A stretch of DNA of 64,000 bases from positions 6,267-70,266 of the forward strand of contig JBBRRV010000002.1 in NCBI GenBank assembly GCA_038246075.1, read 5' to 3'. The DNA is from Bacteroidales bacterium (GTDB taxonomy: Bacteria; Bacteroidota; Bacteroidia; Bacteroidales; DASVHX01). The position numbers and the translations under genes were made by a program. Under the pieces are notes generated by a model. That model was not told the DNA's origin. It saw nothing but the letters and a program-made list of their open reading frames with translations, and searched no databases. Position 1 is the first letter of the stretch, and the number at the start of each line of letters is the position of its first letter. Positions 16,710-59,214 of this stretch are shown here, in pieces.

Positions 16710-16800
16710 GTGGTTTCTGATTTCAAAATTTCGCTATATCCGGATACTTCTTTACAATTACATTGAAATAAATAGAAATAAATAGTTTACAACATGTTTT

Positions 16801-16850
16801 TATGTATTTAAGGTATATCAATGTATATCAATGTATATCAATGTATTTAT
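16801..16850. repeat. Decamer tandem array, 5 units (ATGTATATCA type)
   Basis: tatgtattta aggtatatca atgtatatca atgtatatca atgtatttat. Same family as the TTCAATGTAT decamers elsewhere. Confidence 0.9.
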
Positions 16851-18353: not shown

Positions 18354-18373
18354 CTTCTTTCTATATAAATTCC

Positions 18374-18408: not shown

Positions 18409-18440
18409 AATTTTCAAGGTTAAAGGAGAAAGGTTGTCAG

Positions 18441-18590
18441 TTCAATTTGCTTCCATATACTTCAACCTACTTCTTTTTATGTGCATGTATTTCTGCGTAT
18501 TTCCATTTACTTCCATTTACTTCCATTTACTTCAATTTACTTCAAAATATTTCTATGTATTTCTATGTGTTTCAAAGTGTTTCAAAGTTT
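18441..18590. repeat. Decamer tandem array, 15 units in unbroken 10-bp register (TTCCATTTAC type)
   Basis: ttcaatttgc ttccatatac ttcaacctac ttctttttat gtgcatgtat ttctgcgtat ttccatttac x3 ttcaatttac ttcaaaatat ttctatgtat ttctatgtgt ttcaaagtgt ttcaaagttt. Confidence 0.95.
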
Positions 18591-18650
18591 CAAGTGAGTT
18601 CCTTTTTGCGCCATTGCTAAACTGTGGTTGACTTTCAACAAGGTTTCGTA

Positions 18651-18683
18651 TGGCCTGATGCCTATTGCCTATTGCCTGCCTAT
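18651..18683. repeat. Heptamer array (TGCCTAT; ATAGGCA on the minus strand), about 4 units
   Basis: tggcctga tgcctat tgcctat tgcctgcctat, just downstream of the dnaA terminator. Confidence 0.85.
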
Positions 18684-18696
18684 CGCCGGCAAAGAT

Positions 18697-18727
18697 AAAA
18701 AAAACCGCCGGCAAGCTGCACGGCGGT
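18697..18727 (-). terminator. Rho-independent terminator of dnaA
   Basis: Minus strand ACCGCCG-tgcagcttgc-CGGCGGT followed by TTTTTTTT, 24 nt after the dnaA stop. Confidence 0.7.
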
Positions 18728-18750
18728 ATCATCATCATATTTGTCAACCG

Positions 18751-20208
18751 TTAAATTTTGATTTTTTTCTCGATCTCATCTGCAAATATCCTGAAATTCT
18801 TATCAGTATCGATAAGGTTGTTCACTGTGCGGCAGGCATGCAGTACGGTGGCGTGGTCCTTGTTACCGCAATGCAGGCCGATAGTAGCCAGCGACGATTT
18901 GGTGAGTTTTTTGGAAAAGAACATGGCCAGTTGCCGTGCCTGAACGATATCGCGTTTCCGTGTTTTGGAGTTGAGCTGATCTACCGGGATGTTAAAGTAA
19001 TCACAAATGATCTTTTGAATGAAGTCGATAGAGATCTCGCGGGTAGTGTTTTTCACGAATTTATCGATCATCTGCCTTGCCAGTTCTATCGTAATTGCTT
19101 TCTTGTTGAGTGATGACTGTGCCATGAGCGAAATGAGCGCACCTTCGAGTTCACGCACATTTGTGGCAATGCTGTAGGCAAGGTATTCAATTACATCCTG
19201 AGGCATCTCTATGCCATCCTTGTAAAGCCGTTTATGAAGAATAGCTATCCTTGTCTCGAGATCAGGAACCTGCAGGTCGGCAGCAAGACCCCATTTGAAG
19301 CGGGAAAGCAACCTTGGTTCCATACCTTTAAGTTCAACCGGAGCTTTATCAGATGTGATGATAATCTGCTTCCCTTTCTGATGTAAGTGGTTAAATATAT
19401 GGAAAAAGACATCCTGGGTCTTTTCCTTACCTGCCAGGAATTGAATATCATCCAGGATAAGCACATCTATCATCTGGTAGAAGTGGACAAAATCGTTATG
19501 GTTGTTATTTCTTACCGCATCTATAAACTGCTGCGTAAATTGCTCTGTAGCAACGTAGAGAACAGTTTTTTCCGGAAACATGTTCTTTACCTGGATGCCA
19601 ATGGCGTGCACCAGGTGTGTTTTTCCCAATCCTACGTTAGAATAAAGGAATAATGGGTTGAATGATGTTTTGCCTGGTTTATTGGCAACGGCATATCCTG
19701 CTGAACGTGCGAGGCGGTTGCAATCACCTTCCACAAAATTATCAAACGAATAGGATTCGATAAGTTGGGATTGTACCTGGATTTTTTTTAGTCCAGGGAT
19801 TACGAAGGGGTTTGGGATGTCTTTTGACCCTGAACCATTTATATTTAGTGGCATTGATACTGAAGGATTTGCGATTGCCCTTTTATTACTTGTAGGTACT
19901 TTAATGGTGTATGGATCAGCATTAAAACTGCCATCCATCACAATACTGTATTCGAGCCGGCCTGTAATTCCAAGTTCGTTGCGTACAGTCTTTTTAAGCA
20001 GACTGATGTAATGCTCTTCGAGCCATTCGTAAAAGAACTGGCTGGGCACCTGTATGGTGAGTACATTGTTTTCAAGCTTTACGGGCTTTATCGGGGCGAA
20101 CCACGTTTTGAAGTTCTGGTAATTCAGATTGTCCTTGATGACGAGCAGACAATTGTCCCATACTTCTTCGAAAGCTTCTTTCATTCGTGTATTGGTGTTA
20201 AAGATCAT
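18751..20208 (-). CDS. dnaA: Chromosomal replication initiator DnaA
   Basis: 485-aa ORF. Walker A NVGLGKTHL, Walker B LILDDIQF, C-terminal DNA-binding signature DHATVLHA. The alternative start at M9 (20184) is possible. Confidence 0.95.
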   Translation of the reverse strand: MIFNTNTRMKEAFEEVWDNCLLVIKDNLNYQNFKTWFAPIKPVKLENNVLTIQVPSQFFYEWLEEHYISLLKKTVRNELGITGRLEYSIVMDGSFNADPYTIKVPTSNKRAIANPSVSMPLNINGSGSKDIPNPFVIPGLKKIQVQSQLIESYSFDNFVEGDCNRLARSAGYAVANKPGKTSFNPLFLYSNVGLGKTHLVHAIGIQVKNMFPEKTVLYVATEQFTQQFIDAVRNNNHNDFVHFYQMIDVLILDDIQFLAGKEKTQDVFFHIFNHLHQKGKQIIITSDKAPVELKGMEPRLLSRFKWGLAADLQVPDLETRIAILHKRLYKDGIEMPQDVIEYLAYSIATNVRELEGALISLMAQSSLNKKAITIELARQMIDKFVKNTTREISIDFIQKIICDYFNIPVDQLNSKTRKRDIVQARQLAMFFSKKLTKSSLATIGLHCGNKDHATVLHACRTVNNLIDTDKNFRIFADEIEKKIKI

Positions 20209-31885: not shown

Positions 31886-31927
31886 TAGGCAATAGGCATT
31901 AGGCAATAGGCAATAGGCAATAGGCAA
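31886..31927. repeat. Heptamer tandem array, 6 units (TAGGCAA)
   Basis: taggcaa taggcat taggcaa x4, starting 28 nt after the mqnD stop. Confidence 0.95.
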
Positions 31928-32052
31928 TTGTCAGCACCTGAAATACATTGAGCCCCCAAAGAATAATTATTCATCACCTGAATTTCATTCGGCCTGATTT
32001 CCTTGGATTTGATTACTTTTGTGACCATTTTTGTTTACTCCAGCTATTATTT

Positions 32053-42159: not shown

Positions 42160-42204
42160 TTTGAATGTTTTTGTTTAAACGGATTGAAACAGATAGATTA
42201 ATTG

Positions 42205-42276
42205 GATTGATGAGATTGAAAGGATTGATGAGATTGAAAGGATTGATGAGATTGAAGGGATTGAAAGGATTGATGC
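42205..42276. repeat. Nonamer tandem array, 8 units (GATTGATGA/GATTGAAAG alternating, 18-bp super-unit)
   Basis: gattgatga gattgaaag x3, then gattgaagg gattgaaag gattgatgc. A degenerate copy gattgaaac lies at 42182. Confidence 0.95.
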
Positions 42277-42290
42277 GTTCTGAATTGATT

Positions 42291-42420
42291 TCAAACGTTT
42301 TCAATGTATTTCAATGTATTTCTAAGTATTTCAATGTATTTCATTGTATTTCAACATGCTTCCATGTACTTCGATGTACTTCCATGTACTTCCATGTACT
42401 TCCATGTATTTCCATGTATT
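42291..42420. repeat. Decamer tandem array, 13 units in unbroken register (TCAATGTATT then TCCATGTACT sub-blocks)
   Basis: tcaaacgttt tcaatgtatt x2 tctaagtatt tcaatgtatt tcattgtatt tcaacatgct tccatgtact tcgatgtact tccatgtact x2 tccatgtatt x2. Confidence 0.95.
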
Positions 42421-42434
42421 CCCTTTTGTATAAT

Positions 42435-42908
42435 TTATTCATTATGATACGGTTCGTTTTTTAAAATGGTAAATGCCCGGTATAGCTGTTCTGCAAATAT
42501 AAGTCTTATCAATTGGTGGGTAAAGGTAAGCCGTGAAAGCGAAAGCTGGAAGGATGCGCGTTTTTTCACTTCATCGGCAATGCCAAAAGCACCCCCGACA
42601 AGGAAAATCAATTCCCTGGTTCCTGAGTTCATCCATTTCTGCAACTGGGTGGAAAATTCCACCGAGCGGAGTTCTGTGCCTTTTTCATCGAGCACGGCAA
42701 GTGTGCTGCCAGGTGAAAGTTGCTTCAGGATCAGCAAGGCTTCGCGTTCCTTAACCTGATGTGGCGACAGGTTGGCAGCATCTTTTAGTGCCGGGATCAC
42801 AATTACCTGCAATGTGGTATAATGACGAAGGCGCGATAAATACAGATTTAAACCTTGCTCAATGAAAGCTTCTTCAGTTTTGCCGACAAGGATGATTGTT
42901 ATCTTCAT
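42435..42908 (-). CDS. rlmH: 23S rRNA (pseudouridine1915-N3)-methyltransferase
   Basis: 157-aa SPOUT protein. MKITIILVGKT... and LSLSRLTFTHQL are typical of RlmH. Confidence 0.9.
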   Translation of the reverse strand: MKITIILVGKTEEAFIEQGLNLYLSRLRHYTTLQVIVIPALKDAANLSPHQVKEREALLILKQLSPGSTLAVLDEKGTELRSVEFSTQLQKWMNSGTRELIFLVGGAFGIADEVKKRASFQLSLSRLTFTHQLIRLIFAEQLYRAFTILKNEPYHNE

Positions 42909-43002
42909 GTGTTATCATTTCTTTGCAAAGGTGCAATAAAATCGAAAGACCTGACATGCGCTGTGCAGTTGTATTTTTCGTTATAGCTATGTCATTTTTC
43001 GA

Positions 43003-43010
43003 TATATTTG
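43003..43010 (+). promoter_or_regulatory. -7 box TATATTTG
   Basis: About 200 nt upstream of the DUF4783-nadC-yihY operon ATG at 43213, implying a long leader if it is used. Confidence 0.3.
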
Positions 43011-43212
43011 CAGTAGATTCATTGATTTTCTGACCATATTGGTTTGGTTTTTGCTCTATGTTAATGCCTGAAACATTTGATATGCAAAAGCCATAAATAT
43101 ACGCTGGCATCAACATGACAAATTTTTGACGCAGCATGACAAGTAAAAATGTAAAGATATGCGTAATATACAGCCTATAGCAGGCTGGCGTTTATCACGG
43201 AATAAATAATAA

Positions 43213-43626
43213 ATGATGATGAAAAAAAACCTGATGTTTGTTCTTTTCTCGATGTTGATTTCCTTTGCTGCGCCTGCAGCATCGGTAATGCCGGCTTCTT
43301 CCGGAATTATCGAATCAATAGCTTCAGCCATTAAGGGGGCAAATTCCGGTGAGCTGGCGAGGTATTTCAGCAATACTGTGGAAATACAGATTCCCGGCAA
43401 AGAAGGAACATTTAGTAAGAGCCAGGCAGAAATGATCATGAAAGATTTCTTTTCCAGGAATCCTGTAACTTCATATGCTGTAAATCAGCAGGGGTCATCT
43501 AACGGCGGCGCCCAATTTATGATTGGAACCTACAAAAGTGGTAAAACTATTTTTCATGTTTATGTTTTGGTGAAACCTGTTGGCGGTCAGTTGCTGATTC
43601 AGCAGCTTCACTTTGAATCAGAATAA
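43213..43626 (+). CDS. DUF4783-like secreted protein
   Basis: 137-aa ORF with a signal peptide. The motif LARYFSNTVEIQIPG..GTFSKSQAEMIMKDFF and its position directly upstream of nadC match the Bacteroidota DUF4783 family as I remember it. Confidence 0.65.
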   Translation: MMMKKNLMFVLFSMLISFAAPAASVMPASSGIIESIASAIKGANSGELARYFSNTVEIQIPGKEGTFSKSQAEMIMKDFFSRNPVTSYAVNQQGSSNGGAQFMIGTYKSGKTIFHVYVLVKPVGGQLLIQQLHFESE

Positions 43627-43654
43627 TCCTGCCACTAGCTTAAAGTTCTGCCTG

Positions 43655-44491
43655 ATGACGATTGATGAGATAATTATACAAGCCCTGCGTGAAGACCTTG
43701 GTGATGGTGACCACACCTCGCTGGCAACAATTCCAGGCTCAGCCAAAGGGAAAGCCAGGCTGCTGGTAAAGGAAGAGGGTGTGATCGCCGGTTTGGATAT
43801 CGCTCAAAAGGTATTTACTACCGTAGATCCTGCGCTTCGTATGACAACCTTTTATGCTGATGGTGCCCGCGTTAAAAAGGGTGACATTGCGTTTGAGATT
43901 GAGGGTCCTGTTATTTCCATCCTTTCATCCGAACGGCTTGTACTCAATTTTATGCAACGCATGAGTGGTATTGCTACGGCCACGAGTATTCTGGTCGACC
44001 GCATCAAAGGACTGGATACTAAAATCCTGGACACCCGCAAGACAACACCCTTGCTGCGCGAAATAGAGAAAATGGCTGTCCGCATCGGTGGCGGGTTTAA
44101 CCACAGATTTGGCCTCTACGATATGATCATGATCAAGGATAATCATGTCGACTTTGCAGGTGGAATTGCTGAAGCTATTCATTCGGCTGCCGCATATCTG
44201 CAGCGCACAGGGAAGCATTTGCAGATCGAGATTGAAACCCGCTCGCTTGAAGAAGTCCGGGAAGTGCTGGTAACTGGTGGCGTTAACCGCATCATGCTAG
44301 ATAATTTTGATTTTCCGGAATTAAGGCAAGCCGTGGAACTTATCAGCCACCGCTATGAAACAGAAGCTTCAGGCGGTATAACCCTCGAAACAATCAGGCA
44401 ATATGCAGCATGCGGCGTCGACTTTATCTCGGTAGGGGCACTTACACATCATATCAGTAGCCTTGATCTCAGCCTCAAGGCTGAGTGCTAA
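43655..44491 (+). CDS. nadC: Nicotinate-nucleotide pyrophosphorylase (carboxylating)
   Basis: The ORF starts at 43613; MTIDEIIIQALREDLGDGDHTS starts at 43655. TRKT and IMLDNF motifs. Confidence 0.9.
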   Translation: MTIDEIIIQALREDLGDGDHTSLATIPGSAKGKARLLVKEEGVIAGLDIAQKVFTTVDPALRMTTFYADGARVKKGDIAFEIEGPVISILSSERLVLNFMQRMSGIATATSILVDRIKGLDTKILDTRKTTPLLREIEKMAVRIGGGFNHRFGLYDMIMIKDNHVDFAGGIAEAIHSAAAYLQRTGKHLQIEIETRSLEEVREVLVTGGVNRIMLDNFDFPELRQAVELISHRYETEASGGITLETIRQYAACGVDFISVGALTHHISSLDLSLKAEC

Positions 44492-44502
44492 ATTCCTGTT
44501 GG

Positions 44503-45486
44503 ATGATGTATAAGGAACAGATTAAGCAGAAAGCTCAGAAAGCACGTGATCAATTAAAACATATAGGGAGAAAGACGTTGGTCTGGAAACCTGTCCGTTC
44601 TTTCATTGTCTTTACCAATCGCCTGATCTTGCCTGGTTTCGACGGATTATCGCTCTGGGATGTATCGGTGTTTTTTGTAAGAGGCATCCAACGCGGATCC
44701 ATCACTTCAAGGGCATCTTCTTTTTCATTCAACTTTTTTCTGGCCGTATTTCCGGCAATTATTTTCTTTTTTACCATTATTCCTTATATCCCGGTGGCTC
44801 ATTTTCAGGATACACTGCTTGAGCTGATGCGCGATTTCATTCCCGAAAAGGCATATAACGCAGTGGAAGGGACCCTGTTCGACATTGTAAAACGTCCCCG
44901 TGGTGGTCTGCTTTCGATAGGTTTTATACTGGCCATGTATTTTTCCACCAACGGGATTAACAGCCTCATCGAGTCGTTCAACCAAACTTACCATACTATA
45001 GAAACCCGTTCAGCTTACAAACAAAGACTGATATCAATACTCCTTGTACTTATCCTGTCGGTATTGGTGATCCTGGCTATTATGCTGATCATTATAGGCC
45101 CGATTGTGCTGGAATTCCTCGTCAGTAAAAATATTTTGCACAGCAGATTTCTCGTGCAACTAATCAATTTCGGCAAATGGGCTGTTATTGTAGCCCTTTT
45201 CTTTTTTGTTTACTCTTTTCTTTATTATCTGGCCCCTGCCAAACGCAGGCAATTCCGGTTTATTTCAGCCGGATCCACACTTGCCACCGGCCTCACGATC
45301 CTGACTTCTATTGGATTTAATTACTATGTGAACAATTTTTTGCGCTATAACACGCTCTATGGATCAATTGGTACATTAATGATTGTAATGCTCTGGATCT
45401 ATTTTAATGCCATTATTGTGCTGGTGGGTTTTGAACTGAATGCGAGCATTTTCAATGCCAAGCAGGAGTGGAGAGCCACAAGATGA
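44503..45486 (+). CDS. YihY/BrkB-family membrane protein
   Basis: The track start at 44485 is GTG; an ATG-ATG pair lies at 44503. Six hydrophobic helices and YGSIGTLMIVMLWIYF, typical of the family. Confidence 0.75.
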   Translation: MMYKEQIKQKAQKARDQLKHIGRKTLVWKPVRSFIVFTNRLILPGFDGLSLWDVSVFFVRGIQRGSITSRASSFSFNFFLAVFPAIIFFFTIIPYIPVAHFQDTLLELMRDFIPEKAYNAVEGTLFDIVKRPRGGLLSIGFILAMYFSTNGINSLIESFNQTYHTIETRSAYKQRLISILLVLILSVLVILAIMLIIIGPIVLEFLVSKNILHSRFLVQLINFGKWAVIVALFFFVYSFLYYLAPAKRRQFRFISAGSTLATGLTILTSIGFNYYVNNFLRYNTLYGSIGTLMIVMLWIYFNAIIVLVGFELNASIFNAKQEWRATR

Positions 45487-45615
45487 AATTGGAAAATTGA
45501 AAATTTGAAATACATAGAAATACATAGTAGTACATTGAAGTAAATTGAAGTTGAGTGATGGGATTGATGAACTTTGAAATACATAGAAATACATAGAATT
45601 ACCTTGAAGTATTTG
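45484..45615. repeat. Decamer-type array in inverted orientation (GAAATACATA / GAAGTACATT), about 10 units, with an embedded GATTGATGA nonamer
   Basis: Starts at the yihY stop codon. tacatagaaa tacatagtag tacattgaag taaattgaag ... ggattgatga ... acatagaaat acatagaatt. These units are reverse complements of the 18441 and 42291 decamers. Confidence 0.9.
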
Positions 45616-45636
45616 GTCCTGGAATCAGAATTTACC

Positions 45637-45769
45637 TTGGATCTTTGATCTTGGAATTTGGGACTTGGATCTTGGAACTTGGGACTTGGGACTTGGAATT
45701 TGGGACTTGGATTTTGGAACTTGGGACTTGGATCTTGGAACTTGGGACTTGGAATTTGGAACCTGGAAT
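45637..45769. repeat. Heptamer tandem array, 19 units (TTGG[GA][AT][CT])
   Basis: ttggatc tttgatc ttggaat ttgggac ttggatc ttggaac ttgggac ttgggac ttggaat ttgggac ttggatt ttggaac ttgggac ttggatc ttggaac ttgggac ttggaat ttggaac ctggaat. No indels. Confidence 0.95.
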
Positions 45770-45827
45770 TTATTAAGAAGATATAATTAGCTGTTTATCA
45801 GTTAAATATATTATAGTTAGATGGAAG

Positions 45828-47669
45828 ATGAATATAATTATCATAAACCGGCAACTGTCAGATCGAGAAATCATTGCAATTAAAGCAATGATAAAGGAGG
45901 GTGATTTTCGGCTCTATGCCTCGCAGGGGTTACCTGCAGAACTGGCACATCTCATCCCGGAACAACCGGTTTTAAGTTCACAGGAGAAGAAACAGATATT
46001 TACCAATGCGCTCAGCGGTTTACTTCAGTTTGGTGATAAACTCATAGATGGAATGGCCGTGAGCAAGCGGCTCACTTTTGGGTCGATGCCGCTCTGGCAT
46101 TACCAGCGTTTCAGGATTTATTTCCCATTGCGGACTCTGCTCCTGGAACTTGCAGAGCTCCGGCAGCTTTCAAATGATTCAGGCAGGTTGATCTGCTATT
46201 CATCCAGTACATTGCTCAAAGGCCTGTCAGACCTTCCTTCAAATGTTGAATTGCATGCGGATATGGGACAAAAAGTTGCATTAAACTATAAAGTAGTTGC
46301 TGCTTATGCACTTTTTGCCATTTTGCGTTTCATCATTGGTGCATTCCAGATGATGAATATAGCCGGAAAGCGACATGTGATCCTTGACCGGTCAGAAAAG
46401 CAGGTTTGTGTCGATCCCGATACGCTTCGGACAAAACAGGATAACTACAACCTCTCTTACCTGCTTGACCGATCGGGAAAAGAATTTCTGGTGATCAGCG
46501 AGGTTGAAATTCCCAAATTCAACACATCCTCGAACTTTCGGCTCAGGGGATACCATTTCTGGCAGCAGGGGCGCATGCAAAGGACGCTATATGGCGAATA
46601 TATTCTTATCCGTGCAATGCTTAGTAAACGGGTTCATCGGGAGAAAGCCGCTTTGCTCCGGGATTTTGACGGCGTTGTTGAAACCATTGGAAAGGCTTCA
46701 CTGTCTCAATCTGAAAAACTGATTTTTTCTTTTTTTGTTGGTTTACGCAGGACGAACAGCTTTTTTGTTGTCAAACACCTGGCTTATCTGCGATTCTTTA
46801 AACATCACAGGTTTGTTACGATAAGTTGTATCGATGAAAACAGTCCTTCGGTACGTTGCATTCTGGATGCGGGAAGAGCGCACGGTTCAGGAATCATAGG
46901 CATTCAGCACGGTATGATCAGCGATGAACAACCTGCCTATCTTTATACTGCATCGGACCGCAGTAATCTTGTTATGGCTGATCATACGCTTGTCTGGGGC
47001 GAATACTGGAAAGCGGTTCTCATCAATAAGTGCAATTATCCGCCCGAACGTATTCATGTGATCGGACAGATTCGCACTGATGTCATTCCACGGCTGAAGG
47101 AAACGGGCGATACAGATTTGAAGATGAAGCTGACAGGTGGCAAATTCCTGGTCGTATTTGCTTCGCAGCCACAGCCTGATGCCCGTGTGCGCAGGCAGGC
47201 TGCCTTTGATGTGTTTACCGCGCTGAAAGACGAAAAAGATGTATTTGTACTTGTAAAACTTCATCCGGCAGAGCGCAACGCAGTCGCCTATTATAATGGC
47301 ATCGCCGAAGCAGCTGGCTGTTCGAATTACAGGCTGGTTTATGATATCGATCTTTACCGCCTCCTGGCAGCATGCGATGCGCTTATTACCTGTTATTCCG
47401 CAGTGGGAACAGAAGCGGTCTACTTTTCAAAACCATTGATCATTCTCGACTATAATCGTGACGATTTACTTGGTTACCATGCTGAAGGGGTTGCAGCGCA
47501 GGCTACTGGCAGTGATGACCTGAATAAGATTGTGCGCGGATTTCTGGACAGGAAAATCCTGCCGGATAAAGCAGCTTATGCTGCCTTTATCAGTGCCTAT
47601 GCTTATCAGGTAGATGGCCATGCAGTTGACCGCTGCCTTGAATTCATCAGAAGTCTAGAGCAGGGATAG
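45828..47669 (+). CDS. Uncharacterised 613-aa protein; the C-terminal half looks like a GT-B transferase with an HP motif (candidate CMP-nonulosonate transferase)
   Basis: C-terminal FLVVFASQPQPD...VFVLVKLHPAERN...ITCYSAVGTEAVYFSKPLIILDY resembles the KpsS/TagF/bacterial sialyltransferase class. One hydrophobic helix (VVAAYALFAILRFIIGAF). Convergent with the NulO operon, overlapping it by 15 nt. Confidence 0.45.
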   Translation: MNIIIINRQLSDREIIAIKAMIKEGDFRLYASQGLPAELAHLIPEQPVLSSQEKKQIFTNALSGLLQFGDKLIDGMAVSKRLTFGSMPLWHYQRFRIYFPLRTLLLELAELRQLSNDSGRLICYSSSTLLKGLSDLPSNVELHADMGQKVALNYKVVAAYALFAILRFIIGAFQMMNIAGKRHVILDRSEKQVCVDPDTLRTKQDNYNLSYLLDRSGKEFLVISEVEIPKFNTSSNFRLRGYHFWQQGRMQRTLYGEYILIRAMLSKRVHREKAALLRDFDGVVETIGKASLSQSEKLIFSFFVGLRRTNSFFVVKHLAYLRFFKHHRFVTISCIDENSPSVRCILDAGRAHGSGIIGIQHGMISDEQPAYLYTASDRSNLVMADHTLVWGEYWKAVLINKCNYPPERIHVIGQIRTDVIPRLKETGDTDLKMKLTGGKFLVVFASQPQPDARVRRQAAFDVFTALKDEKDVFVLVKLHPAERNAVAYYNGIAEAAGCSNYRLVYDIDLYRLLAACDALITCYSAVGTEAVYFSKPLIILDYNRDDLLGYHAEGVAAQATGSDDLNKIVRGFLDRKILPDKAAYAAFISAYAYQVDGHAVDRCLEFIRSLEQG

Positions 47670-48344
47670 TTTCGATTGAACGAATTCTGCATATAGCCAG
47701 TCAGTTTCTGTATCCAGGTCGGCGGAGTATTTATCTTCCATCACATACTTTATGATGCGCCGGTTTGCCGGTTTAATGGCTTGCCTGAGGCTTTGAACGT
47801 TAAAGACGTAAATGGCTCCGTTCGCCTGCCAGACAAGCGGACAATCCTGCCTTCGCATGAAAGTGCCTGTTTTTGATTTTTCCAGAAAACCATCTTTATT
47901 TTCCTCAAATAACACGAAGTAAGGATTTGCCTCAGTCAGTTTAACGGAAAGAACAAGATCGATGTCAGGCGAATATAAAGCAAGCGCTTCCTTTACATGG
48001 AAGGCCTGCCTTAAAGGTGATGTAGGCTGCAACAGTACTATATTATCATAGCTTTTTCCCCGGGAAGTATAAAAATCAAGTGCATGCCTGATTACCTCTT
48101 CAGAAGAAGCGGTATCGGTGGATAATTCAGGTGGGCGGCGAAACGGAAGATACAATCCCATTCCTTCGGCCACGGCAGCAATAGCATCATCGTCAGTCGA
48201 GAGGCAGATGTCAGCATCTGCTGCAAACTGCCGGGCAAGGTCAATGCCATAGCTAACGAGAGGCTTGCCGGCGAACAACCTTACGTTTTTTCCCGGAATT
48301 CCTTTGGAACCGCCTCTGGCAGGAATAATAAAAAGTGTGTGCAT
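47655..48344 (-). CDS. neuA: CMP-N-acylneuraminate (nonulosonate) cytidylyltransferase, NeuA/LegF-like
   Basis: 229-aa ORF with the IIPARGGSKGIPGKN motif. Confidence 0.9.
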   Translation of the reverse strand: MHTLFIIPARGGSKGIPGKNVRLFAGKPLVSYGIDLARQFAADADICLSTDDDAIAAVAEGMGLYLPFRRPPELSTDTASSEEVIRHALDFYTSRGKSYDNIVLLQPTSPLRQAFHVKEALALYSPDIDLVLSVKLTEANPYFVLFEENKDGFLEKSKTGTFMRRQDCPLVWQANGAIYVFNVQSLRQAIKPANRRIIKYVMEDKYSADLDTETDWLYAEFVQSKLSLL

Positions 48345-49396
48345 TAGAATTTAATGTGTTTGATTTCCTGTTGTGCCTTTTCAAAATCCTCAATCCGGCC
48401 TATATCCATCCAGTAGCCAAGGATAGGGTAATGGATTAATTTTTGTCCCTGTGCCAATACAGCATCCATCAGTTCGGTAGCATGGTAATGTTGTCCGGCA
48501 GGTATCATGTGCAAAAGTTCGCGTTTTACAATATAGATGCCGGCATTCGTATAATGGGTATAGACAGGTTTTTCGCGGAATGAAAGGATGCGGCTGCCCG
48601 AGGTCTCGAGCACGGCAAAGGGCATATTTACTTTATAGGGAATAGAGGCGACTGCCATTACAGCATCCTCTTCGATAAAATTCTTGTAAAAATCCTCGTA
48701 ATCGATATTGGTAAGGATATCGGAATTGATGATCAGCACATGCTCGCTGGAGAATCCTTCTATCAGGCTTATGGCGCCAATAGTTCCCATGGGTGCAGTC
48801 TCGCGGATATAATCGATATTGATGGATTTTGAACTGCCGTCGCCGAAATAGGTTTCGATCTGTTCGCCAAGGTATTTGACGGCAATGTGAAAATCGTCAA
48901 GACCAAAATCAATCAGGCGATCTATATTATGTTCCAGAATCGGTTTGTCGCCTATTTTAAGCAGGGGTTTCGGAATTGTATCCGTGAGCGGGCGTAACCT
49001 TTCTCCGCGGCCACCGGCCATAATCACTACATCCAACGGGAGAACGGACCGCTGCTTGTTCAGGTTAATAATCTTGATAACTCTTTTTTGATCGTCAAGC
49101 AATGGAACGAGTTTGATGAGCCTTTTCCGGAAATTTTCAATGTCATGCAGGTCAAATTCGTTTTTGCGGATAAAGCGGTACTGACGAAACATGAACTCAC
49201 TGACAGGCGTATCTAAAGTTAATCCGCTTAGAAGCCCCCGCCGCACATCACCGTCGGTAAGCGTGCCAACGAGCTGTTTGTCGTCATTCAAAGCGAAGAG
49301 TGTTAAAGTATCAGGTATTTCATTGAGCATTAACAAGGCTACTTTAACAGTTTCCTTTTCATCTATAAATTGTTTTTGCAGTTCAGCAGGATTCAT
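48344..49396 (-). CDS. CBS-pair plus sugar-1-phosphate nucleotidyltransferase, PtmE-like
   Basis: MAGGRGERLRPLTDTIPKPLL nucleotidyltransferase loop preceded by a CBS pair. The ORF extends to 49477, but that overlaps neuC by 95 nt. The ATG at 49396 (MNPAELQ) leaves a 14-nt overlap. Confidence 0.8.
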   Translation of the reverse strand: MNPAELQKQFIDEKETVKVALLMLNEIPDTLTLFALNDDKQLVGTLTDGDVRRGLLSGLTLDTPVSEFMFRQYRFIRKNEFDLHDIENFRKRLIKLVPLLDDQKRVIKIINLNKQRSVLPLDVVIMAGGRGERLRPLTDTIPKPLLKIGDKPILEHNIDRLIDFGLDDFHIAVKYLGEQIETYFGDGSSKSINIDYIRETAPMGTIGAISLIEGFSSEHVLIINSDILTNIDYEDFYKNFIEEDAVMAVASIPYKVNMPFAVLETSGSRILSFREKPVYTHYTNAGIYIVKRELLHMIPAGQHYHATELMDAVLAQGQKLIHYPILGYWMDIGRIEDFEKAQQEIKHIKF

Positions 49397-50486
49397 TTTT
49401 GAGAATTTTAACGATTTTGTACGCGGTGTTTCCATCACCATAGATATCAACCGGATCGGGTTCGCCGGATTTGGCAACCTTGTTCACGGCTGCAATGATT
49501 TCTGTTGATTTCAACGGGCAGTTGATAATATTTGGCGTAATGATCCGGCCTTGCTGGCGGTTACCAAGGTTAATGACCCATTTCGGGAAAAAGGCAGCAT
49601 CGAAAAATCCGCTGGATGTATTGCCGACAAGCATTTTACTGTATTTCATGCAGCTAAGGTAGCCAAGCGAGCCGAAATTTTCGACCAGGTGAACCCGGCT
49701 TTTTCCGTTGGCAAAAGCCCCGAGTTTTTCCCTTATCATCAGACCAGTCGTATCCGCATTCGGCATGGTAATGACGATCTGGTAATCATTCAGGTATACA
49801 AATGCTGCGATCAGTTCATCGATGGCCTGTGTGTTATTTTCGTAAGAAACAGTTTCCGGGTGGAAGGTGCTCAGAATTGTCGGCAGGCTAAGGTCAATTT
49901 GAAATTGTTGTTTAAAAGCCTCAACGGAGAGCAGCTGAACATGATGCAGGTAATCCATACTTAAAGCGCCGGTGTTGTATGCATTTTCATCTGATCCCTT
50001 GAGTTCTGCAACACGCCGGCGATACACCTCTGTGCTGGTAAAATGCAGCTGCGACATGTGGGTGATGGAATGTCTGAAAGCATCGTCGATAGCGCCCTTT
50101 GTAGTTTCCCCTCCGTGGATGTGTGCAAATCTGATGTTAAACGGGACGCCCGAAGCCACGGCGGCAAACATCTCGAAACGGTCGCCAAGGGCAAATACCA
50201 GGCTAAAACGCTCGTTTGTCCATACTTTTGTAAAGGCTTCCATTGTTTTCCCCATTGCCGTGGAAATAGCAGCAGGGCTGTCATCTTCCGGCATAACGGG
50301 AATGCGGTAGGCTACATCAAACCCTTCCGAAATGATCTGGTCTATGGTCATGCCAAAAGCAGGGGATAGGTGACTCCCGAAAGCGATGATTTTTAATTCA
50401 AAAAACGGATCGGATGCAAGGGCACGCAGTAAAGGAAGGTAGATGCCGAAATCGGCCCGGGAGCTTGTGAGAATGGCTATTTTCAC
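49383..50486 (-). CDS. neuC: Hydrolysing NDP-N-acetylhexosamine 2-epimerase, NeuC/LegG-like
   Basis: 367-aa ORF. MKIAILTSSRADFGIYLPLL. GTG start overlaps the neuB stop (GTGA). Confidence 0.9.
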   Translation of the reverse strand: MKIAILTSSRADFGIYLPLLRALASDPFFELKIIAFGSHLSPAFGMTIDQIISEGFDVAYRIPVMPEDDSPAAISTAMGKTMEAFTKVWTNERFSLVFALGDRFEMFAAVASGVPFNIRFAHIHGGETTKGAIDDAFRHSITHMSQLHFTSTEVYRRRVAELKGSDENAYNTGALSMDYLHHVQLLSVEAFKQQFQIDLSLPTILSTFHPETVSYENNTQAIDELIAAFVYLNDYQIVITMPNADTTGLMIREKLGAFANGKSRVHLVENFGSLGYLSCMKYSKMLVGNTSSGFFDAAFFPKWVINLGNRQQGRIITPNIINCPLKSTEIIAAVNKVAKSGEPDPVDIYGDGNTAYKIVKILKNESC

Positions 50487-51505
50487 AGAAGATGATCCAT
50501 TTGAAGCTGGGTGTCGGATTCCAGCTTTATTTTTAATTTCCTGCCAATGATGTCATCCATCAGCATTGGACTGATGCCGTTTCCAGGCCTTTTCATTGCC
50601 AGGTCAGTTTCTGTGAGGATATGTCCTGCAGGCAGATCGGTAGCAAGGTGAATACTCTTGCGGGCCGCTGTCAGGTTTTTTAATTCGGATGGTAAAGGTT
50701 CTTTAATCCCGCTACCCAGCGCCTTCTCAACGTTGCGGATGGCTTTAACCATGGCTTTGAGTTCGTGCGGTTCGAGCGAAGCCTTGTGATCGGGACCCGG
50801 TAATGAACGATTGAGCGTAAAATGTTTTTCTATTATTTTGGCACCAAGTGCTGCAGCAGCGATGGCGATTTCAATTCCCTGCGTGTGGTCGGAAAATCCT
50901 GATCTAACGTTAAATGTTTCACCCAGTGAAAGCATTGCTTTCAGGTTTACATCCTCCATGGGCGCAGGGTATTCAGTTGTGCACTGCAATAAGGTTATTT
51001 TATTCAATGGGGTGCCTGCAACTGTCAGCACATCCACGGCCTGCTTAATTTCTTCCATGGTGGACATTCCGGTTGAAAGTGCTACTGATTTTCCCAAAGA
51101 TCCTATTTTTCTCAGATAAGGAAGGTTGGTGATTTCCCCGGAAGGAATCTTAAACAAACTCATGCCAAACTCCAGGAGCAGGTCGATGCTTTCGAGGTCA
51201 AAAGCCGTTGAGAGGAATCTTATCCGGCTGCGTTTGCATTGTTCAATCAGCTGGAGGTGTGCATTCCGGTCAAGTTCGAGCCTGCGTAACATATCATACT
51301 GGCTTTCTCCGGGCTCGCTGCCTTGCTGTATAGCCTGGTAGGCTGCCTTTGGTGCAGCGGATGTTACAAGGTGCCCGGTCTTGAAGGTCTGGAATTTTAC
51401 GTAATCAGCCCCGGCTTCAGCCGCAGCTTCTACCAGTTTGTGGGCAAGTTCCATCTGCCCGTTATGATTTACGCCGGCTTCAGCTATGATAATTATTTTA
51501 GTCAT
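50483..51505 (-). CDS. neuB: N-acylneuraminate (nonulosonate) synthase, NeuB/LegI-like
   Basis: IIAEAGVNHNG motif and a C-terminal SAF-like domain. ATG at 51505; the track start at 51517 is TTG. Confidence 0.9.
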   Translation of the reverse strand: MTKIIIIAEAGVNHNGQMELAHKLVEAAAEAGADYVKFQTFKTGHLVTSAAPKAAYQAIQQGSEPGESQYDMLRRLELDRNAHLQLIEQCKRSRIRFLSTAFDLESIDLLLEFGMSLFKIPSGEITNLPYLRKIGSLGKSVALSTGMSTMEEIKQAVDVLTVAGTPLNKITLLQCTTEYPAPMEDVNLKAMLSLGETFNVRSGFSDHTQGIEIAIAAAALGAKIIEKHFTLNRSLPGPDHKASLEPHELKAMVKAIRNVEKALGSGIKEPLPSELKNLTAARKSIHLATDLPAGHILTETDLAMKRPGNGISPMLMDDIIGRKLKIKLESDTQLQMDHLL

Positions 51506-52148
51506 GCGATTTTCCAATTACAGTGGCAGGATTACCATATAGTTTTAACCCATCACCCACATTTCTAACTACAACAGCAGCGGCCCCGAAAAGGTTGCTG
51601 TTCCCGATGGTCAGGTTGTTGAGCAAGGTGGCATTCGTGCCAATAAAATTATTGTTTCCGATTGTACAGGTGCCATTCACAACGCAGGCAGTTGAAATAT
51701 GGTTGTTGGCGCCAATAATGCTATCATGTTCTATAAGACAGGAAGTGTTCACAATGCAATTCGGTCCGATTATTACGCCTGCATTGATAAAAGCAAAGGG
51801 CATCACAAGTGTACCCTGACCAAGGCTGGCGTGTGGTGATACATAGGCTCTTGGCGAAATGATCACCGGCAAGCGGCATCCATGTGTCACGAGCAACTCA
51901 TACATGTGCCAGCGAGGTCGGTAATCACGCACATGCCCGATGGTTATAAAGAAATGCTTGTATGCTTTGGCCAATTGCGGCAGATCATCATCATTGGCGA
52001 AAACTTCATAGCCCAGTATCTTCTCATGTAGCCGCGAAGGCATGTCAACGATACCGGCTACTGCGAACTTTCCTTCCTGCTCGATGGTGTCGATCACTGA
52101 TTTACAATGGCCTCCGCCACCAAAAAGCACGATTTCCTCTTTGCTCAT
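51498..52148 (-). CDS. NeuD/PglD-family hexapeptide sugar N/O-acetyltransferase (LegH-like)
   Basis: 216-aa ORF. N-terminal Rossmann-like LFGGGGHCKSVID and left-handed beta-helix repeats. Confidence 0.85.
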   Translation of the reverse strand: MSKEEIVLFGGGGHCKSVIDTIEQEGKFAVAGIVDMPSRLHEKILGYEVFANDDDLPQLAKAYKHFFITIGHVRDYRPRWHMYELLVTHGCRLPVIISPRAYVSPHASLGQGTLVMPFAFINAGVIIGPNCIVNTSCLIEHDSIIGANNHISTACVVNGTCTIGNNNFIGTNATLLNNLTIGNSNLFGAAAVVVRNVGDGLKLYGNPATVIGKSHD

Positions 52149-52181
52149 ATACTGTTTATGCCAGGAAAGTTTAAATTATTC

Positions 52182-52189
52182 CAAATGTA
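52182..52189 (-). promoter_or_regulatory. -7 box TACATTTG, candidate promoter of the NulO operon
   Basis: caaatgta on the plus strand, 33 nt upstream of the neuD-family ATG at 52148. Confidence 0.5.
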
Positions 52190-52258
52190 CGCATATTTAC
52201 ATTATCAATGGCTATAACACCTCTTATGCTAATGTTCGGTGCCGTCTGGTTTTTGGTC

Positions 52259-52266
52259 TATCTTTG
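52259..52266 (+). promoter_or_regulatory. -7 box TATCTTTG
   Basis: 24 nt upstream of the gpsA-like ATG at 52291. Divergent from the NulO promoter. Confidence 0.5.
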
Positions 52267-52290
52267 CGCCTTAAATCTGAAAGGCAAAAA

Positions 52291-53271
52291 ATGATGGAAA
52301 ATCCGAATATTTGCATCGTTGGCGCCGGGTCAATAGGGACAGCCCTTGGCAATGCGCTGGCTGTCCGTCCCGAACTCAACGTTCGCTTACTATCTATCGA
52401 GGAAGAGGTAGTGAATACAATCAGCACAGATCATATCAACCAGAAATATTTTCCGAATATCAGGCTGAGCCCGAGGCTGAAAGCTACTACCAATGTGCAT
52501 GTGCTTGAAGATGCCGATATCATCTTCCTGGCAATTCCATCGGTTAATACAGAAGATTATGTGGCTCAACACCGCAAACTGATCTCTCCGAAAGCTATTC
52601 TTGTGAATCTGGCCAAAGGTTTTGGCGCTGATAATAATACCATAACCGAGAGCCTCAGCAGCCAATCCGATCTTGTGGTTTGTTCGCTCAAGGGACCTAC
52701 ATTCGCCCGCGAAATCATTAACAATATTCCCACGGCTTTTACATTGGGAGCTCCCGAAGAATCACTGTTTCCGGTATTCGCCGATACGTTTAAGGATACG
52801 ATTATCTACCTTGATTATTCCACTGATATGCGGGGTGTTGAAATCCTGAGCATTATCAAGAATATTTATGCGATCATCATCGGTATCGTGGATGCCAACT
52901 TTAATTCGCCAAACCTTAGATTTCTGGCCTTTACAAAAGCCTTCAACGAGATGCGGCATATTTTAATTTTTTCAGGTGGCCGCGAGGAAACCATGTTTAA
53001 TTATTGCGGGATAGGTGACTTTGGCCTTACTTCGCTGAATGACCTTAGCCGCAACCGCACACTGGGGTTGCTGATCGGAAAAGGATTCTTCACCCAGGAT
53101 ATTTCAGATAAAGTTGTACTGGAAGGAAAGATAGCCGTTAATATATTTGTTGAGGAACTGAAGAAAAAAGGAATGCCTCCAGAGCAGTATTACCTGATGA
53201 ACGAATTGTATAAAGTATTTAATGAACCTTATGATATTTCTACTTTCGTCAGTAAATTGCTGGTCCGCTAG
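52291..53271 (+). CDS. NAD(P)H-dependent glycerol-3-phosphate dehydrogenase-like (GpsA family)
   Basis: MMENPNICIVGAGSIGTALGNALA...DADIIFLAIPS. The ORF-track start at 52042 is an antisense run-on over neuD. A TATCTTTG box lies 24 nt upstream of the ATG at 52291. Confidence 0.8.
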   Translation: MMENPNICIVGAGSIGTALGNALAVRPELNVRLLSIEEEVVNTISTDHINQKYFPNIRLSPRLKATTNVHVLEDADIIFLAIPSVNTEDYVAQHRKLISPKAILVNLAKGFGADNNTITESLSSQSDLVVCSLKGPTFAREIINNIPTAFTLGAPEESLFPVFADTFKDTIIYLDYSTDMRGVEILSIIKNIYAIIIGIVDANFNSPNLRFLAFTKAFNEMRHILIFSGGREETMFNYCGIGDFGLTSLNDLSRNRTLGLLIGKGFFTQDISDKVVLEGKIAVNIFVEELKKKGMPPEQYYLMNELYKVFNEPYDISTFVSKLLVR

Positions 53272-53919: not shown

Positions 53920-54036
53920 AGTGCCTAGAGTTGGGAGTGCCTAGAGTGCCTGGAGTTGGGAGTGCCTAAAGTTCCTAGAGTTCCTAGAGTTCCTAGAGTG
54001 CCTAGAGTTGGGAGTGCCTAGAGTGCCTGGAGTTGG
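53920..54036. repeat. Mixed 9-mer/7-mer array (AGTGCCTAG / AGTTCCTAG / AGTTGGG) with a duplicated ~41-bp higher-order block
   Basis: [agtgcctag agttggg agtgcctag agtgcctgg agttggg] agtgcctaa agttcctag x3 [agtgcctag agttggg agtgcctag agtgcctgg agttgg]. Confidence 0.95.
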
Positions 54037-54092
54037 TTTCCTGCTATCGTCATTTTTATGATATTGTGCGCGTTTTTCAATATCGAATCTGT

Positions 54093-54133
54093 TGCCTATT
54101 GCCTAATGCCTAATACCTCAATGGAGTGCCTAT
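54093..54133. repeat. Heptamer array (TGCCTAT/TGCCTAA) overlapping the wecB stop codon
   Basis: tgcctat tgcctaa tgcctaa tacctca atggag tgcctat. Confidence 0.85.
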
Positions 54134-59080: not shown

Positions 59081-59150
59081 AGTTGGTGATTTGTGTCTGG
59101 TAATTGGTGATTTTTAATGGGTGTCTGTTAACTGGTGACTTGGGACTGGA
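59081..59150. repeat. Irregular repeat (TTGGTGA ... GTGTCTG) x2-3 ending in ACTTGGGACTGG
   Basis: agttggtgatttgtgtctggta attggtgatttttaatgggtgtctgtta actggtgacttgggactgg. Confidence 0.7.
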
Positions 59151-59165
59151 TCAATTAACAATGAG

Positions 59166-59214
59166 CCTTTCTCCTTTAACCTTTCTCCTTTATCCTTTAA
59201 CCTTTAAGCTTTGG
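59166..59214. repeat. Heptamer tandem array, 7 units (CCTTTNN)
   Basis: cctttct cctttaa cctttct cctttat cctttaa cctttaa gctttgg. Overlaps the stop codon of the DUF4834-like gene. Confidence 0.9.

Follow-up and report, generated by a model that had tools for sequence, protein, structure and literature searches.

A gene for a YihY/BrkB-family inner-membrane protein is followed, on the same strand of the 64,000-nt stretch of DNA analysed here (the window), by a gene for a 613-aa protein with a glycosyltransferase-like C-terminal domain, and the gap between them is filled by a composite repeat cassette (Table 1). A same-strain Logan contig encodes an identical YihY protein. The 613-aa protein gives weak Pfam matches to Glyphos_transf, Epimerase_2 and Capsule_synth and below-cut-off NCBIfam matches to BFO_1060_trans and TIGR04396, has no PDB relative by sequence and no exact copy on record, and its gene adjoins a NeuB/cytidylyltransferase cluster; a function as a nonulosonate transferase is plausible. 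The first-pass annotation of the window, which was made from the letters alone, had identified both flanking genes in the same way.

Table 1. Features of the interval between yihY and the 613-aa gene, and sister arrays in the window
Feature	Position	Strand	Basis
yihY/BrkB-family inner-membrane protein gene	44503..45486	+	Pfam Virul_fac_BrkB 2e-61; NCBIfam TIGR00765 above cut-off
Short 7-8-nt repeats (TGAAATT / AAATTGA), overlapping the yihY stop	45484..45511	+	TRF, sequence
Degenerate decamer array (GAAATACATA / TTGAAGTACA), 10.8 copies	45505..45611	+	TRF, pattern count, blastn-short
Non-repeat linker from decamers to heptamers	45612..45636	+	Motif scan, blastn-short
19 in-register heptamers, TTGG[GA][AT][CT]	45637..45769	+	TRF, register reading, identity at offsets
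AT-rich tail, 58 nt, up to the start codon	45770..45827	+	Motif search, folding
613-aa gene, glycosyltransferase-like C-terminal domain	45828..47669	+	Weak Pfam hits; below-cut-off NCBIfam
Small decamer-family arrays (sense TGATATACAT)	16765..16849	-	TRF, pattern count
Sister cassette, downstream of dnaA	18366..18687	-	TRF, motif scans, gene calls
TAGGCAA x6 array between plus-strand genes	31886..31928	+	TRF
Sister cassette, SPOUT methyltransferase / Ham1/RdgB gap	42204..42420	-	TRF, alignment, pattern count
TAGGCA-type arrays (sense CTAGGCACT / CCCAACT, and TTAGGCA)	53920..54123	-	TRF, gene calls
14-mer and heptamer (sense ATAAAGG) arrays, upstream of a YfhO-like gene	59089..59212	-	TRF

The 286-base stretch that opens with the TGA of yihY (45484-45486) is a genuine block of 10-base and 7-base tandem repeats. 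TRF places its calls at 45484-45511 (period 7-8, overlapping the TGA), 45505-45611 (period 10, 10.8 copies, 73% matches) and 45636-45768 (period 7, 19.0 copies, 0% indels, 77% matches), in agreement with the earlier statement that the repeats start at the yihY stop codon. The decamer block is degenerate and is broken at approximately 45550-45573, where it contains one GGATTGATGA unit of a polarity opposite to that of the array at 42.2 kb. The linker that follows has no significant similarity elsewhere in the window by blastn-short. Of the heptamer array as first described, the count of 19, the absence of indels and the end at 45769, which leaves 58 nt up to the ATG at 45828, all stand; the pattern TTGG[GA][AT][CT], read in register from 45637, fits only 17 of the 19 units, the misfits being TTTGATC and CTGGAAT. 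GGA is present in 18 of the 19 units and GGG in only six. A 21-nt higher-order period (GGGAC/GATC/GAAC) underlies the array, which TRF also calls at period 21 (6.2 copies, 85% matches) and in which identity is 0.77 at offset 7 and 0.85 at offset 21; the longest perfect tract is 20 nt at period 7 and 40 nt at period 21. The plus strand of the array is 32% G and 11% C, as expected from the description of the sense strand as G-rich and the antisense strand as C-rich and G-poor. The AT-rich tail contains CTGTTTATCAGTTAAA (45791-45806) and a small predicted hairpin, with no -7 box at one mismatch or fewer; this tail motif (16-19 nt) occurs elsewhere only in the 42.2 kb cassette (42174-42192, minus strand), giving two matches against 0 expected. 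A coding repeat was rejected, as no plus-strand ORF spans the array, and an Rfam search of the whole window gave nothing at gathering thresholds.

Sister arrays and their orientation

The window contains 13 such arrays in 7 of its 52 intergenic gaps; arrays of 7-11-nt units cover 1064 of 7187 intergenic nt (approximately 15%), at a spacing of about one per 9 kb. The cassettes at 45484 and 53920 do bracket the glycan locus by position, as had been pointed out, although this carries no statistical weight because arrays occur at about that spacing throughout the window. The right-hand member of this bracket is flanked by genes for an Epimerase_2 protein and an acetyltransferase, and the other neighbours of the sister arrays are unrelated to one another: dnaA (upstream of its array), rdgB/Ham1, and genes for a SPOUT methyltransferase, an LMW phosphatase, a menaquinone gene product, a T9SS-tail protein and a YfhO-like protein.

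The individual unit families recur at two to four loci each (decamer, TAGGCA and TTGGnnC). Allowing up to three mismatches, GAAATACATAGAAATAC has 21 matches in the window against 0.27 expected; those at 16.8, 18.5 and 42.3 kb are on the minus strand and those at 45.5 kb on the plus strand, and the decamer and TTGGnnC patterns were counted 21 times against 0.1-0.27 expected. The decamers at 45.5 kb align in the sense orientation with those of the 18.4 and 42.3 kb cassettes, and their description as the reverse complement of the units in these sister cassettes was matched at 18441-18593 and 42299-42420. TTGGnnC heptamers reappear at 18372-18411 on the minus strand, so that the module order, decamers followed by TTGGnnC heptamers, is common to the 18.4 and 45.5 kb cassettes. 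Read in the minus sense, the former comprises a terminator, a -7 box (TATCTTTG), three copies of ATAGGCA, decamers, TTGGGGC heptamers and the ATG of the LMW phosphatase gene; its arrays therefore lie downstream of both the terminator and the -7 box. The 42.2 kb cassette, in the same sense, comprises 12 decamers (TACATTGAAA) and then 9/18-mers (CTTCAATCC); a 99-aa ORF (42165-42464) within these arrays is taken as spurious. The recurrence of the same unit families in the same order at separate loci is not accounted for by neutral slippage alone.

Relative to transcription, the decamer, TAGGCA and TTGGnnC families show a single polarity at 9-10 sites; for example, the array at 31886 between plus-strand genes is oriented, with respect to transcription, just as the minus-strand TAGGCA arrays are. 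GC skew is positive throughout the window without a switch, and replication direction therefore does not account for the orientation flip. These data support the view that array orientation tracks gene direction, as the first-pass annotation had noted from the strand switch of the flanking genes, and not replication direction. Exceptions to this polarity are found at 16765-16785, at the GGATTGATGA unit at 45561-45570 and in one relative (L007, 3457-3475), and the 16.8 kb arrays also include two GAAATAAATA units on the opposite strand. Few and non-independent arrays underlie the supporting statistics, namely k-mer sharing between arrays (38 in the same sense, 18 in the opposite sense), an excess of A over T on the sense strand in 29 arrays against 12, and a purine Wilcoxon test (p = 0.05).

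A survey of the window and the loci of 160 relatives yielded 70 intergenic arrays, in which period 7 is commonest, followed by 8, 10, 9 and 11. Arrays are densest in convergent gaps (1.04 per kb), followed by co-directional (0.54) and divergent (0.19) ones, and many begin 0-35 nt past a stop codon; the counts for the gap types are not independent, because the loci are syntenic.

The orthologous gap in relatives

All of the YihY relatives recovered are Bacteroidales or Lentimicrobiaceae MAGs, and a cyanobacterial origin, to which the resemblance to STRRs had initially pointed, was rejected on these grounds. In the two nearest (L081 and L003, with YihY identities of 84% and 80%), the array is absent and yihY, a 485-aa gene and a 614-aa gene overlap; the 485-aa gene, which is Wzx-like (flippase-like), occupies the exact position of the cassette. 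The 613-aa gene is the ortholog of L081 6274-8118 (73% identity), and the alignment of the window with L081 runs to 45488 and resumes from 45825. The array is also absent from L084. In other relatives, the orthologous gap downstream of yihY holds ACATCCA x19, TTGAACC, CAAGGAA or AAATTGTT, and this alternation between different units and none indicates fast change of both length and sequence. Near-perfect arrays in relatives (a 9-mer x15 at 99% in L007 and a 10-mer x12 at 100% in L015) imply that slippage is active in the lineage.

Scans of GTDB and JGI gave best YihY identities of 80-84% and no same-species contig. Logan contigs of this strain break off at 45526 and 45783, and none spans the array. 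The end at 45783 lies 14 nt outside the array and is not explained by repeat-induced k-mer ambiguity; it could conceal population heterogeneity. A perfect (TTGGGAC)x9 array occurs in an IMG/VR contig (L163) that is unrelated and visibly richer in G+C, and a 21-nt decamer pair has 16 viral matches; a viral origin was rejected, the L163 match being taken as wide recurrence of the unit and not as a pointer to a source.

Nature of the cassette

In the gap between yihY and the 613-aa gene, no sigma-70-like promoter, Bacteroidetes -7 box (TAnnTTTG), terminator or inverted repeat was predicted. A promoter within or after the array was discarded, since the only candidate is a weak one-mismatch box upstream of it (TTTG-17 nt-TACCTTGG, in the linker), and the sole sigma-70-like match of the region is on the minus strand (45861-45834). 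A terminator or hairpin was likewise discarded, as inverted repeats are absent and terminator-like sites in the window are not above those in shuffled sequences. The gap folds less stably as RNA than shuffled controls (z +1.9 sense, +1.5 antisense). No G-quadruplex is predicted: a (G3N1-7)x3G3 motif is absent from 45484-45830 and from the 18.4 kb array, and the ViennaRNA fold was unchanged by the G-quadruplex option. Since dnaA precedes one of the sister cassettes, repeats related to oriC were considered; DnaA boxes do not cluster (9 against 8.7 expected) and GC skew does not switch.

Thirteen dispersed arrays of this kind in one window, built of head-to-tail units within the 5-11-nt range, favouring certain gaps and changing rapidly among relatives, are the hallmarks of short tandemly repeated repetitive sequences (STRRs) and long simple sequence repeats (LSSRs). 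It is thus likely that the cassette is fast-evolving, non-coding repeat DNA of this type, an unstructured intercistronic filler rather than a device specific to the glycan gene. Its arrays would most likely have grown by replication slippage and multi-unit duplication, and the cassette probably fills a gap left by loss of the Wzx-like gene that lay between yihY and the gene for the 613-aa protein. Transcription in the sense direction probably runs through it from yihY into the 613-aa gene, because no promoter or terminator separates the two, and its RNA would then be a long intercistronic spacer or leader without structure. If the downstream gene is affected at all, this may be through the length of this leader or through single-strand RNA-binding proteins on the reiterated units. 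We infer such co-transcription, and any role at the RNA level, from the absence of motifs and the operon structure in relatives. It is tempting to speculate that the arrays act at the RNA level as the equivalent, in Bacteroidota, of the cyanobacterial STRRs, serving in the sense strand, where GGA recurs every 7 nt in the present array, as structure-free multivalent landing pads for S1, a cold-shock protein or an RRM-type protein that would set translation or stability of the downstream cistron, with gene replacement at glycan loci as a side effect; we give this extension a low probability. To our knowledge, Bacteroidota lack Shine-Dalgarno pairing, Hfq, ProQ and CsrA, and such a role, if true, would bear on post-transcriptional control in this phylum.

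The position of a 19-unit heptamer array directly upstream of a surface-carbohydrate gene invites another reading, in which the array is a phase-variable or "rheostat" contingency repeat, with gain or loss of heptamers in a leader or promoter tuning a surface-glycan transferase. The (ATCTTTC)n tract in the 5' UTR of hmw1A provides a precedent (PMC12721329), and the perfect arrays of L007 and L015, as well as the unexpected contig end at 45783, point in the same direction. However, the units at this locus are imperfect (77% identity, with a longest perfect period-7 tract of only 20 nt), neither a pairing partner nor a hairpin is predicted, the array is wholly absent from the nearest relatives, comparable arrays flank housekeeping genes, and GGGNATC-type repeats elsewhere have no link to surface genes (PMC4692102). 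A long perfect tract and a specific association with surface or host-interaction genes, as at hmw1A, were both lacking here. Imperfect units and a genome-wide spread of arrays weaken the phase-switch idea, which we regard as unlikely. The narrower proposal of the first-pass annotation, a spacer-length switch dedicated to the glycan gene, finds no support, given the housekeeping neighbours, the imperfect units, the lack of flanking promoter elements and the presence of a gene in place of the array in relatives.

Its companion proposal of a rut-like, Rho-dependent block to antisense transcription is compatible with the composition of this array; in such a strand-specific block, Rho would load on the antisense RNA of the heptamers, and antisense transcripts from the glycan locus would be kept from running on into yihY. 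The antisense strand (32% C, 11% G) yields a nearly unstructured 146-nt RNA (MFE -2.1 kcal/mol against -13.4 for shuffles, z +3.7), so that the antisense of 45637-45769 has the composition of a rut site (C-rich, G-poor, unstructured, at least about 80 nt), a compositional match to a criterion that may not be that of the Bacteroidota Rho, and the one sigma-70-like match of the region has the required minus-strand direction. The other arrays do not follow: sister arrays are neutral or opposite in skew, with a C-rich sense strand at 42204-42273 and 53920-54036, and of 41 oriented arrays 22 contain more G than C and 17 more C than G, which gives no indication of a general antisense-Rho role. Moreover, there is no obvious antisense source, because both flanking genes lie on the plus strand, and a Rho-loading function is very doubtful. 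A dispersed modular cassette, mobile or spread by recombination, that inserts between co-directional genes, can replace genes and rearranges glycan loci would account for the module order common to 18.4 and 45.5 kb, the tail motif common only to 42.2 and 45.5 kb and the exact replacement of the flippase-like gene, and a role in gene rearrangement has been suggested for similar repeats (MacGregor, 2015; PMC4679880). Against this stand the absence of terminal inverted repeats, target duplications and any nearby transposase or integrase gene, and the lack of significant similarity between the linkers and tails of the cassettes. Inverted repeats as in MITE-like elements of the BOX, REP or Correia type were not found, and matches of head, linker and tail were at chance level in a blastn-short search whose over-permissive threshold gave noisy output. 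The unrelated units in the orthologous gaps of relatives indicate local birth rather than transfer, and we consider a modular element improbable.

Comparison with known tandem repeats

Intergenic tandem repeats of 5-11-nt units, termed STRRs or long SSRs, have been known since 1990, and we are aware of no established function for them. In that year, Mazel et al. reportedly described the cyanobacterial STRR1 repeat CCCCAGT, which is said to equal the GGGGA(C/T)T repeat.

The filler reading places the cassette among these repeats, as a descriptive addition to a known class. The heptamer SSRs GGGAATC of Xanthomonas and GGGGA(C/T)T of Nostoc/Anabaena lie between aligned ORFs and rarely between divergent ones, near stop codons and on the coding strand, are mostly transcribed, vary among relatives and show no association with surface genes (Rehm et al., 2015; PMC4692102). 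The arrays described here are similar in having heptamers with one G-rich strand (a single base separates GGGACTT from GGGGACT), many non-coding arrays per genome, a preference for aligned ORFs, change between close relatives and no link between array presence and gene function. They differ in their Lentimicrobiaceae (Bacteroidota) host, in the fusion of heptamers to decamers in a composite cassette, and in a length far beyond the four units preferred in the SSRs of Rehm et al. (2015). GGG is confined to 6 of the 19 units and the G-quadruplex motif is missing; the at least four consecutive G3+ tracts of the quadruplex-forming GGGNATC subclass do not occur in the array.

TAACTGA and mixed heptamer intergenic direct repeats have been described in Beggiatoaceae, Cyanobacteria and five Bacteroidetes, where the mixed heptamer arrays are in forward orientation and absent from relatives, and a putative post-transcriptional role was proposed (MacGregor, 2015; PMC4679880). 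Long mixed assemblages in some Bacteroidetes, shorter repeat-free gaps in close relatives and short-read contigs that stop inside repeats are common to both cases. By contrast, TAACTGA is absent here and the unit sequences are others, decamers, nonamers and octamers are as prominent as heptamers, and arrays lie against the upstream stop codon more frequently than against the start codon. The survey of long SSRs with 5-11-nt units in 378 genomes by Mrazek, Guo and Shah (2007), as summarised in PMC4679880, offers a further parallel in units of 7-11 nt with heptamers commonest, a sporadic phylogeny, free-living bacteria and a proposed origin by slippage; in that summary, Bacteroidota are not among the richest genomes and polarity relative to transcription is not addressed.

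The H. influenzae hmw1A tract resembles the present array in that heptamers lie upstream of a surface-structure gene and are probably transcribed in its leader (PMC12721329, PMC8262952). It is, however, a perfect tract that differs within populations and forms an RNase III hairpin by pairing with a G-rich arm (PMC12721329, PMC8262952), and more units in its 5' UTR lead to lower expression (PMC12721329), whereas the units here are imperfect, have no partner arm (fold z about +2) and belong to arrays spread genome-wide.

Such arrays are also of practical concern, as they break short-read assemblies, including the same-strain Logan contigs, and create spurious ORFs such as 42165-42464. The window provides a compact example of transcription-linked polarity, a preference for the 3' ends of genes and a cassette in place of a flippase-like gene. 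Judged by its sequence, the cassette appears to match the kind of repeat described from cyanobacteria, Xanthomonas and a few Bacteroidetes, and with it STRR-type repeats would extend to Lentimicrobiaceae.

Structure of the cassette and its sister arrays

The interval 45484-45769, between yihY and the gene for a 613-aa protein, is tandem repeat nearly throughout. The first-pass annotation described it correctly: TRF delineates the arrays listed in the table, 17 of the 19 heptamers (register from 45637) match TTGG[GA][AT][CT], and 58 nt separate the end of the heptamer array from the ATG at 45828. A 21-nt period fits this array better (85% matches, TRF), its longest perfect period-7 tract is 20 nt, and its plus strand contains 32% G and 11% C. 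Of the 19 units (45637-45769), 18 contain a single GGA, a superficial likeness to the GGA strings of CsrA-sequestering RNAs; CsrA is generally held to be absent from Bacteroidota. The motif CTGTTT(0-2)ATCnGTT(0-1)AAA occurs in the window only at 45791-45806 (+) and 42174-42192 (-), against 0 expected; in each case, the gene that follows a repeat cassette has its start codon 14-21 nt 3' of the motif.

Repeat features of the window and units found 3' of yihY in compared loci (L-numbers)
Feature	Position	Details
7-8-nt repeats	45484-45511	overlap TGA at 45484-45486; TRF
Degenerate decamer array	45505-45611	10.8 copies, 73% matches; TRF
Heptamer array	45636-45768	19.0 copies, no indels, 77% matches; TRF
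Decamer family, sense GAAATACATA	16.8, 18.5, 42.3, 45.5 kb	21 matches vs 0.27 expected
TTGGnnC heptamer family	18.37 and 45.64 kb	
TAGGCA-type unit family	18.66, 31.89, 53.9, 54.1 kb	
Cassette near dnaA	18366-18687 (-)	3' of dnaA, 5' of LMW phosphatase gene
Other cassettes		beside SPOUT methyltransferase and Ham1/RdgB; menaquinone gene and T9SS-tail protein; YfhO-like protein
Units 3' of yihY in relatives		ACATCCA x19 (L014); TTGAACC (L036); CAAGGAA (L098); AAATTGTT (L133)

The window holds 13 arrays with 7-14-nt units, which lie in 7 of its 52 intergenic gaps, occupy 1064 of its 7187 intergenic bases and adjoin genes that are unrelated to one another. Relative to the neighbouring genes, the orientation is constant within each unit family, with two small exceptions (16765-16785 and a single GGATTGATGA unit at 45561-45570), and the GC skew is positive over the entire window. 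Thus, the flip in orientation tracks transcription rather than replication, and the earlier observation that the decamers invert together with the flanking genes was right. Read in sense orientation, the cassettes at 45.5, 18.4 and 42.3 kb align, and the order decamers, TTGGnnC heptamers, start codon is common to two of the three. The bracketing of the glycan locus by cassettes, which the first-pass annotation noted, is to be expected by chance of arrays about 9 kb apart. A 99-aa ATG ORF at 42165-42464 (+), wholly inside 9/18-mer and decamer arrays, is almost certainly a repeat artefact and not a gene.

The gene at 18751-20208 (-) is dnaA (DnaA_N, Bac_DnaA and DnaA_C domains). On its 3' side, in the minus sense (18354-18750), a strong intrinsic terminator (CCGCCG-N10-CGGCGG-T8) is followed by a TATCTTTG box, three arrays and the LMW phosphotyrosine phosphatase gene. 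Since the terminator and this Bacteroidetes -7 box both lie 5' of all three arrays, the arrays would sit in a leader of ~330 nt. Neither a DnaA-box cluster nor a GC-skew switch was found in the window, and oriC therefore probably lies elsewhere.

Flanking genes and relatives

The gene 5' of the cassette encodes a YihY/BrkB-family membrane protein. Every relative of this protein in GTDB genomes or JGI metagenomes comes from a Lentimicrobiaceae or Bacteroidales MAG, which rules out the cyanobacterial host suggested by the STRR-like repeats. YihY identity is 84% in the nearest relative, L081, and 80% in L003 and L084; the G+C content of the window is 44%. The 613-aa protein has a weakly glycosyltransferase-like C-terminus and matches Glyphos_transf and Capsule_synth, its matches to BFO_1060_trans and TIGR04396 both being below the cut-off. 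Its gene adjoins a NeuB/NeuC-like/cytidylyltransferase/PglD-like cluster. The proposed name, putative nonulosonate transferase, is plausible but unproven.

Between yihY and the ortholog of the 613-aa gene (73% identity), L081 and L003 carry a ~485-aa gene for a weakly HfsF/Wzx-like membrane protein (4835-6292 in L081; from about 6916 in L003). This gene overlaps both of its neighbours, its ATG coinciding in part with the yihY stop codon. The alignment of the window with L081 runs up to 45488 and resumes from 45825; thus, the cassette occupies the exact place of the 485-aa gene, of which no remnant was found in the window by this comparison. The compared loci of L081, L003 and L084 contain no arrays. 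Arrays are present in more distant Lentimicrobiaceae loci, frequently in the same gaps but with different units, and some of these arrays are perfect or nearly so (9-mer x15, 99%, in L007; 10-mer x12, 100%, in L015). All loci together hold 70 intergenic arrays, among which period 7 is most frequent, followed by 8, 10, 9 and 11. In these syntenic loci, whose counts are non-independent, array density per kb is 1.04 in convergent, 0.54 in co-directional and 0.19 in divergent gaps, many arrays start no more than 35 nt from a stop codon, A is mildly enriched on the sense strand (A > T in 29 arrays, T > A in 12), and purine content is 56.5% in arrays against 49.4% in array-free gaps, a difference of borderline significance.

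Two Logan contigs of the same strain (SRR19962012, SRR19962014) are 100% identical to parts of the window. One (L161) corresponds to 42379-45526 and stops within a decamer array on either side; the other (L162) corresponds to 45783-52344 and, judged by its length, continues to about 53948, within the array at 53.9 kb. These ends imply that short-read assembly breaks at arrays. The L162 end at 45783, however, is 14 nt beyond the heptamer array, where repeated 31-mers do not account for it; it may reflect sample heterogeneity.

Expression signals and possible origin

Searches for sigma-70-like promoters, terminator-like sites and inverted repeats found none between yihY and the ATG. The Bacteroidetes -7 box TAnnTTTG is readily found ~30-100 nt 5' of many start codons in the window, and was not found in the gaps that contain the arrays at 42.2, 45.5 and 53.9 kb; with one mismatch allowed, candidates occur only 5' of the heptamer array and none in the 58-nt tail. 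A canonical TATATTTG at 43003 could be the box for DUF4783-nadC-yihY. The sense RNA of 45484-45830 is predicted to fold less stably than shuffled sequences (z +1.9), as is the antisense RNA (z +1.5), and no G-quadruplex was predicted.

The favoured mechanism is slippage, by which reiterated units would grow in unconstrained DNA 3' of a gene, here presumably the gap that arose when the flippase-like gene was lost; the array would be carried as an unstructured spacer on a yihY-to-glycosyltransferase transcript. The first-pass annotation had suggested a rut-like, Rho-dependent block to antisense transcription. Taken alone, the heptamer array has an almost structure-free antisense RNA (-2.1 kcal/mol, z +3.7), which fits this idea in composition as well, but the idea does not extend to the sister arrays, and G-versus-C skew is unbiased over 41 arrays. 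A spacer-length switch, the other proposal, is disfavoured: the units are imperfect, the array lacks promoter elements on either side, and such arrays are spread across the genome. Polarity and the recurrence of the unit families hint at either selection or some process that works on the transcribed strand.

Relation to known repeat classes

The cassette is best regarded as a new member of the STRR/long-SSR class. Each defining feature tested was found, save G-quadruplex potential, which defines a subclass only. Long SSRs with 5-11-nt units were described, and explained by slippage, by Mrazek (2007), as summarised in the introduction of MacGregor (2015; PMC4679880). A literature search found no account of repeats of this kind in Lentimicrobium. 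The heptamer TTGGGAC recurs far outside Lentimicrobiaceae: an unrelated IMG/VR contig of visibly higher G+C (L163, IMGVR_UViG_3300044838_000141) carries a perfect (TTGGGAC)x9.4 array beside an inverted (GTCCCAA)x5 at 4730-4877, both within a single gap flanked by minus-strand ORFs; further arrays of 7-10-nt units are numerous in this contig, and a decamer of the ATTCGTGT type is dispersed in it. Exact matches to the 21-nt decamer pair GAAATACATAGAAATACATAG, one per contig, occur in 16 viral contigs (~30-57 kb) and one 170 kb contig (L165-L180, IMG/VR, mostly sample 3300045988).

TAACTGA and mixed heptamer arrays occur in Beggiatoaceae, cyanobacteria and five Bacteroidetes, are absent in close relatives and terminate contigs; S1, cold-shock and CsrA-like proteins have been suggested to bind them (MacGregor, 2015; PMC4679880). 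The heptamer repeats GGGAATC and GGGGA(C/T)T of Xanthomonas and Nostoc are non-coding and genome-wide, prefer gaps between aligned ORFs and are rare between divergent ones; they are mostly transcribed, have no link to surface genes, vary among close relatives and are of unknown function (Rehm et al., 2015; PMC4692102). The heptamer of the present cassette, GGGACTT, is one base apart from the published GGGGACT of the Nostoc GGGGA(C/T)T type.
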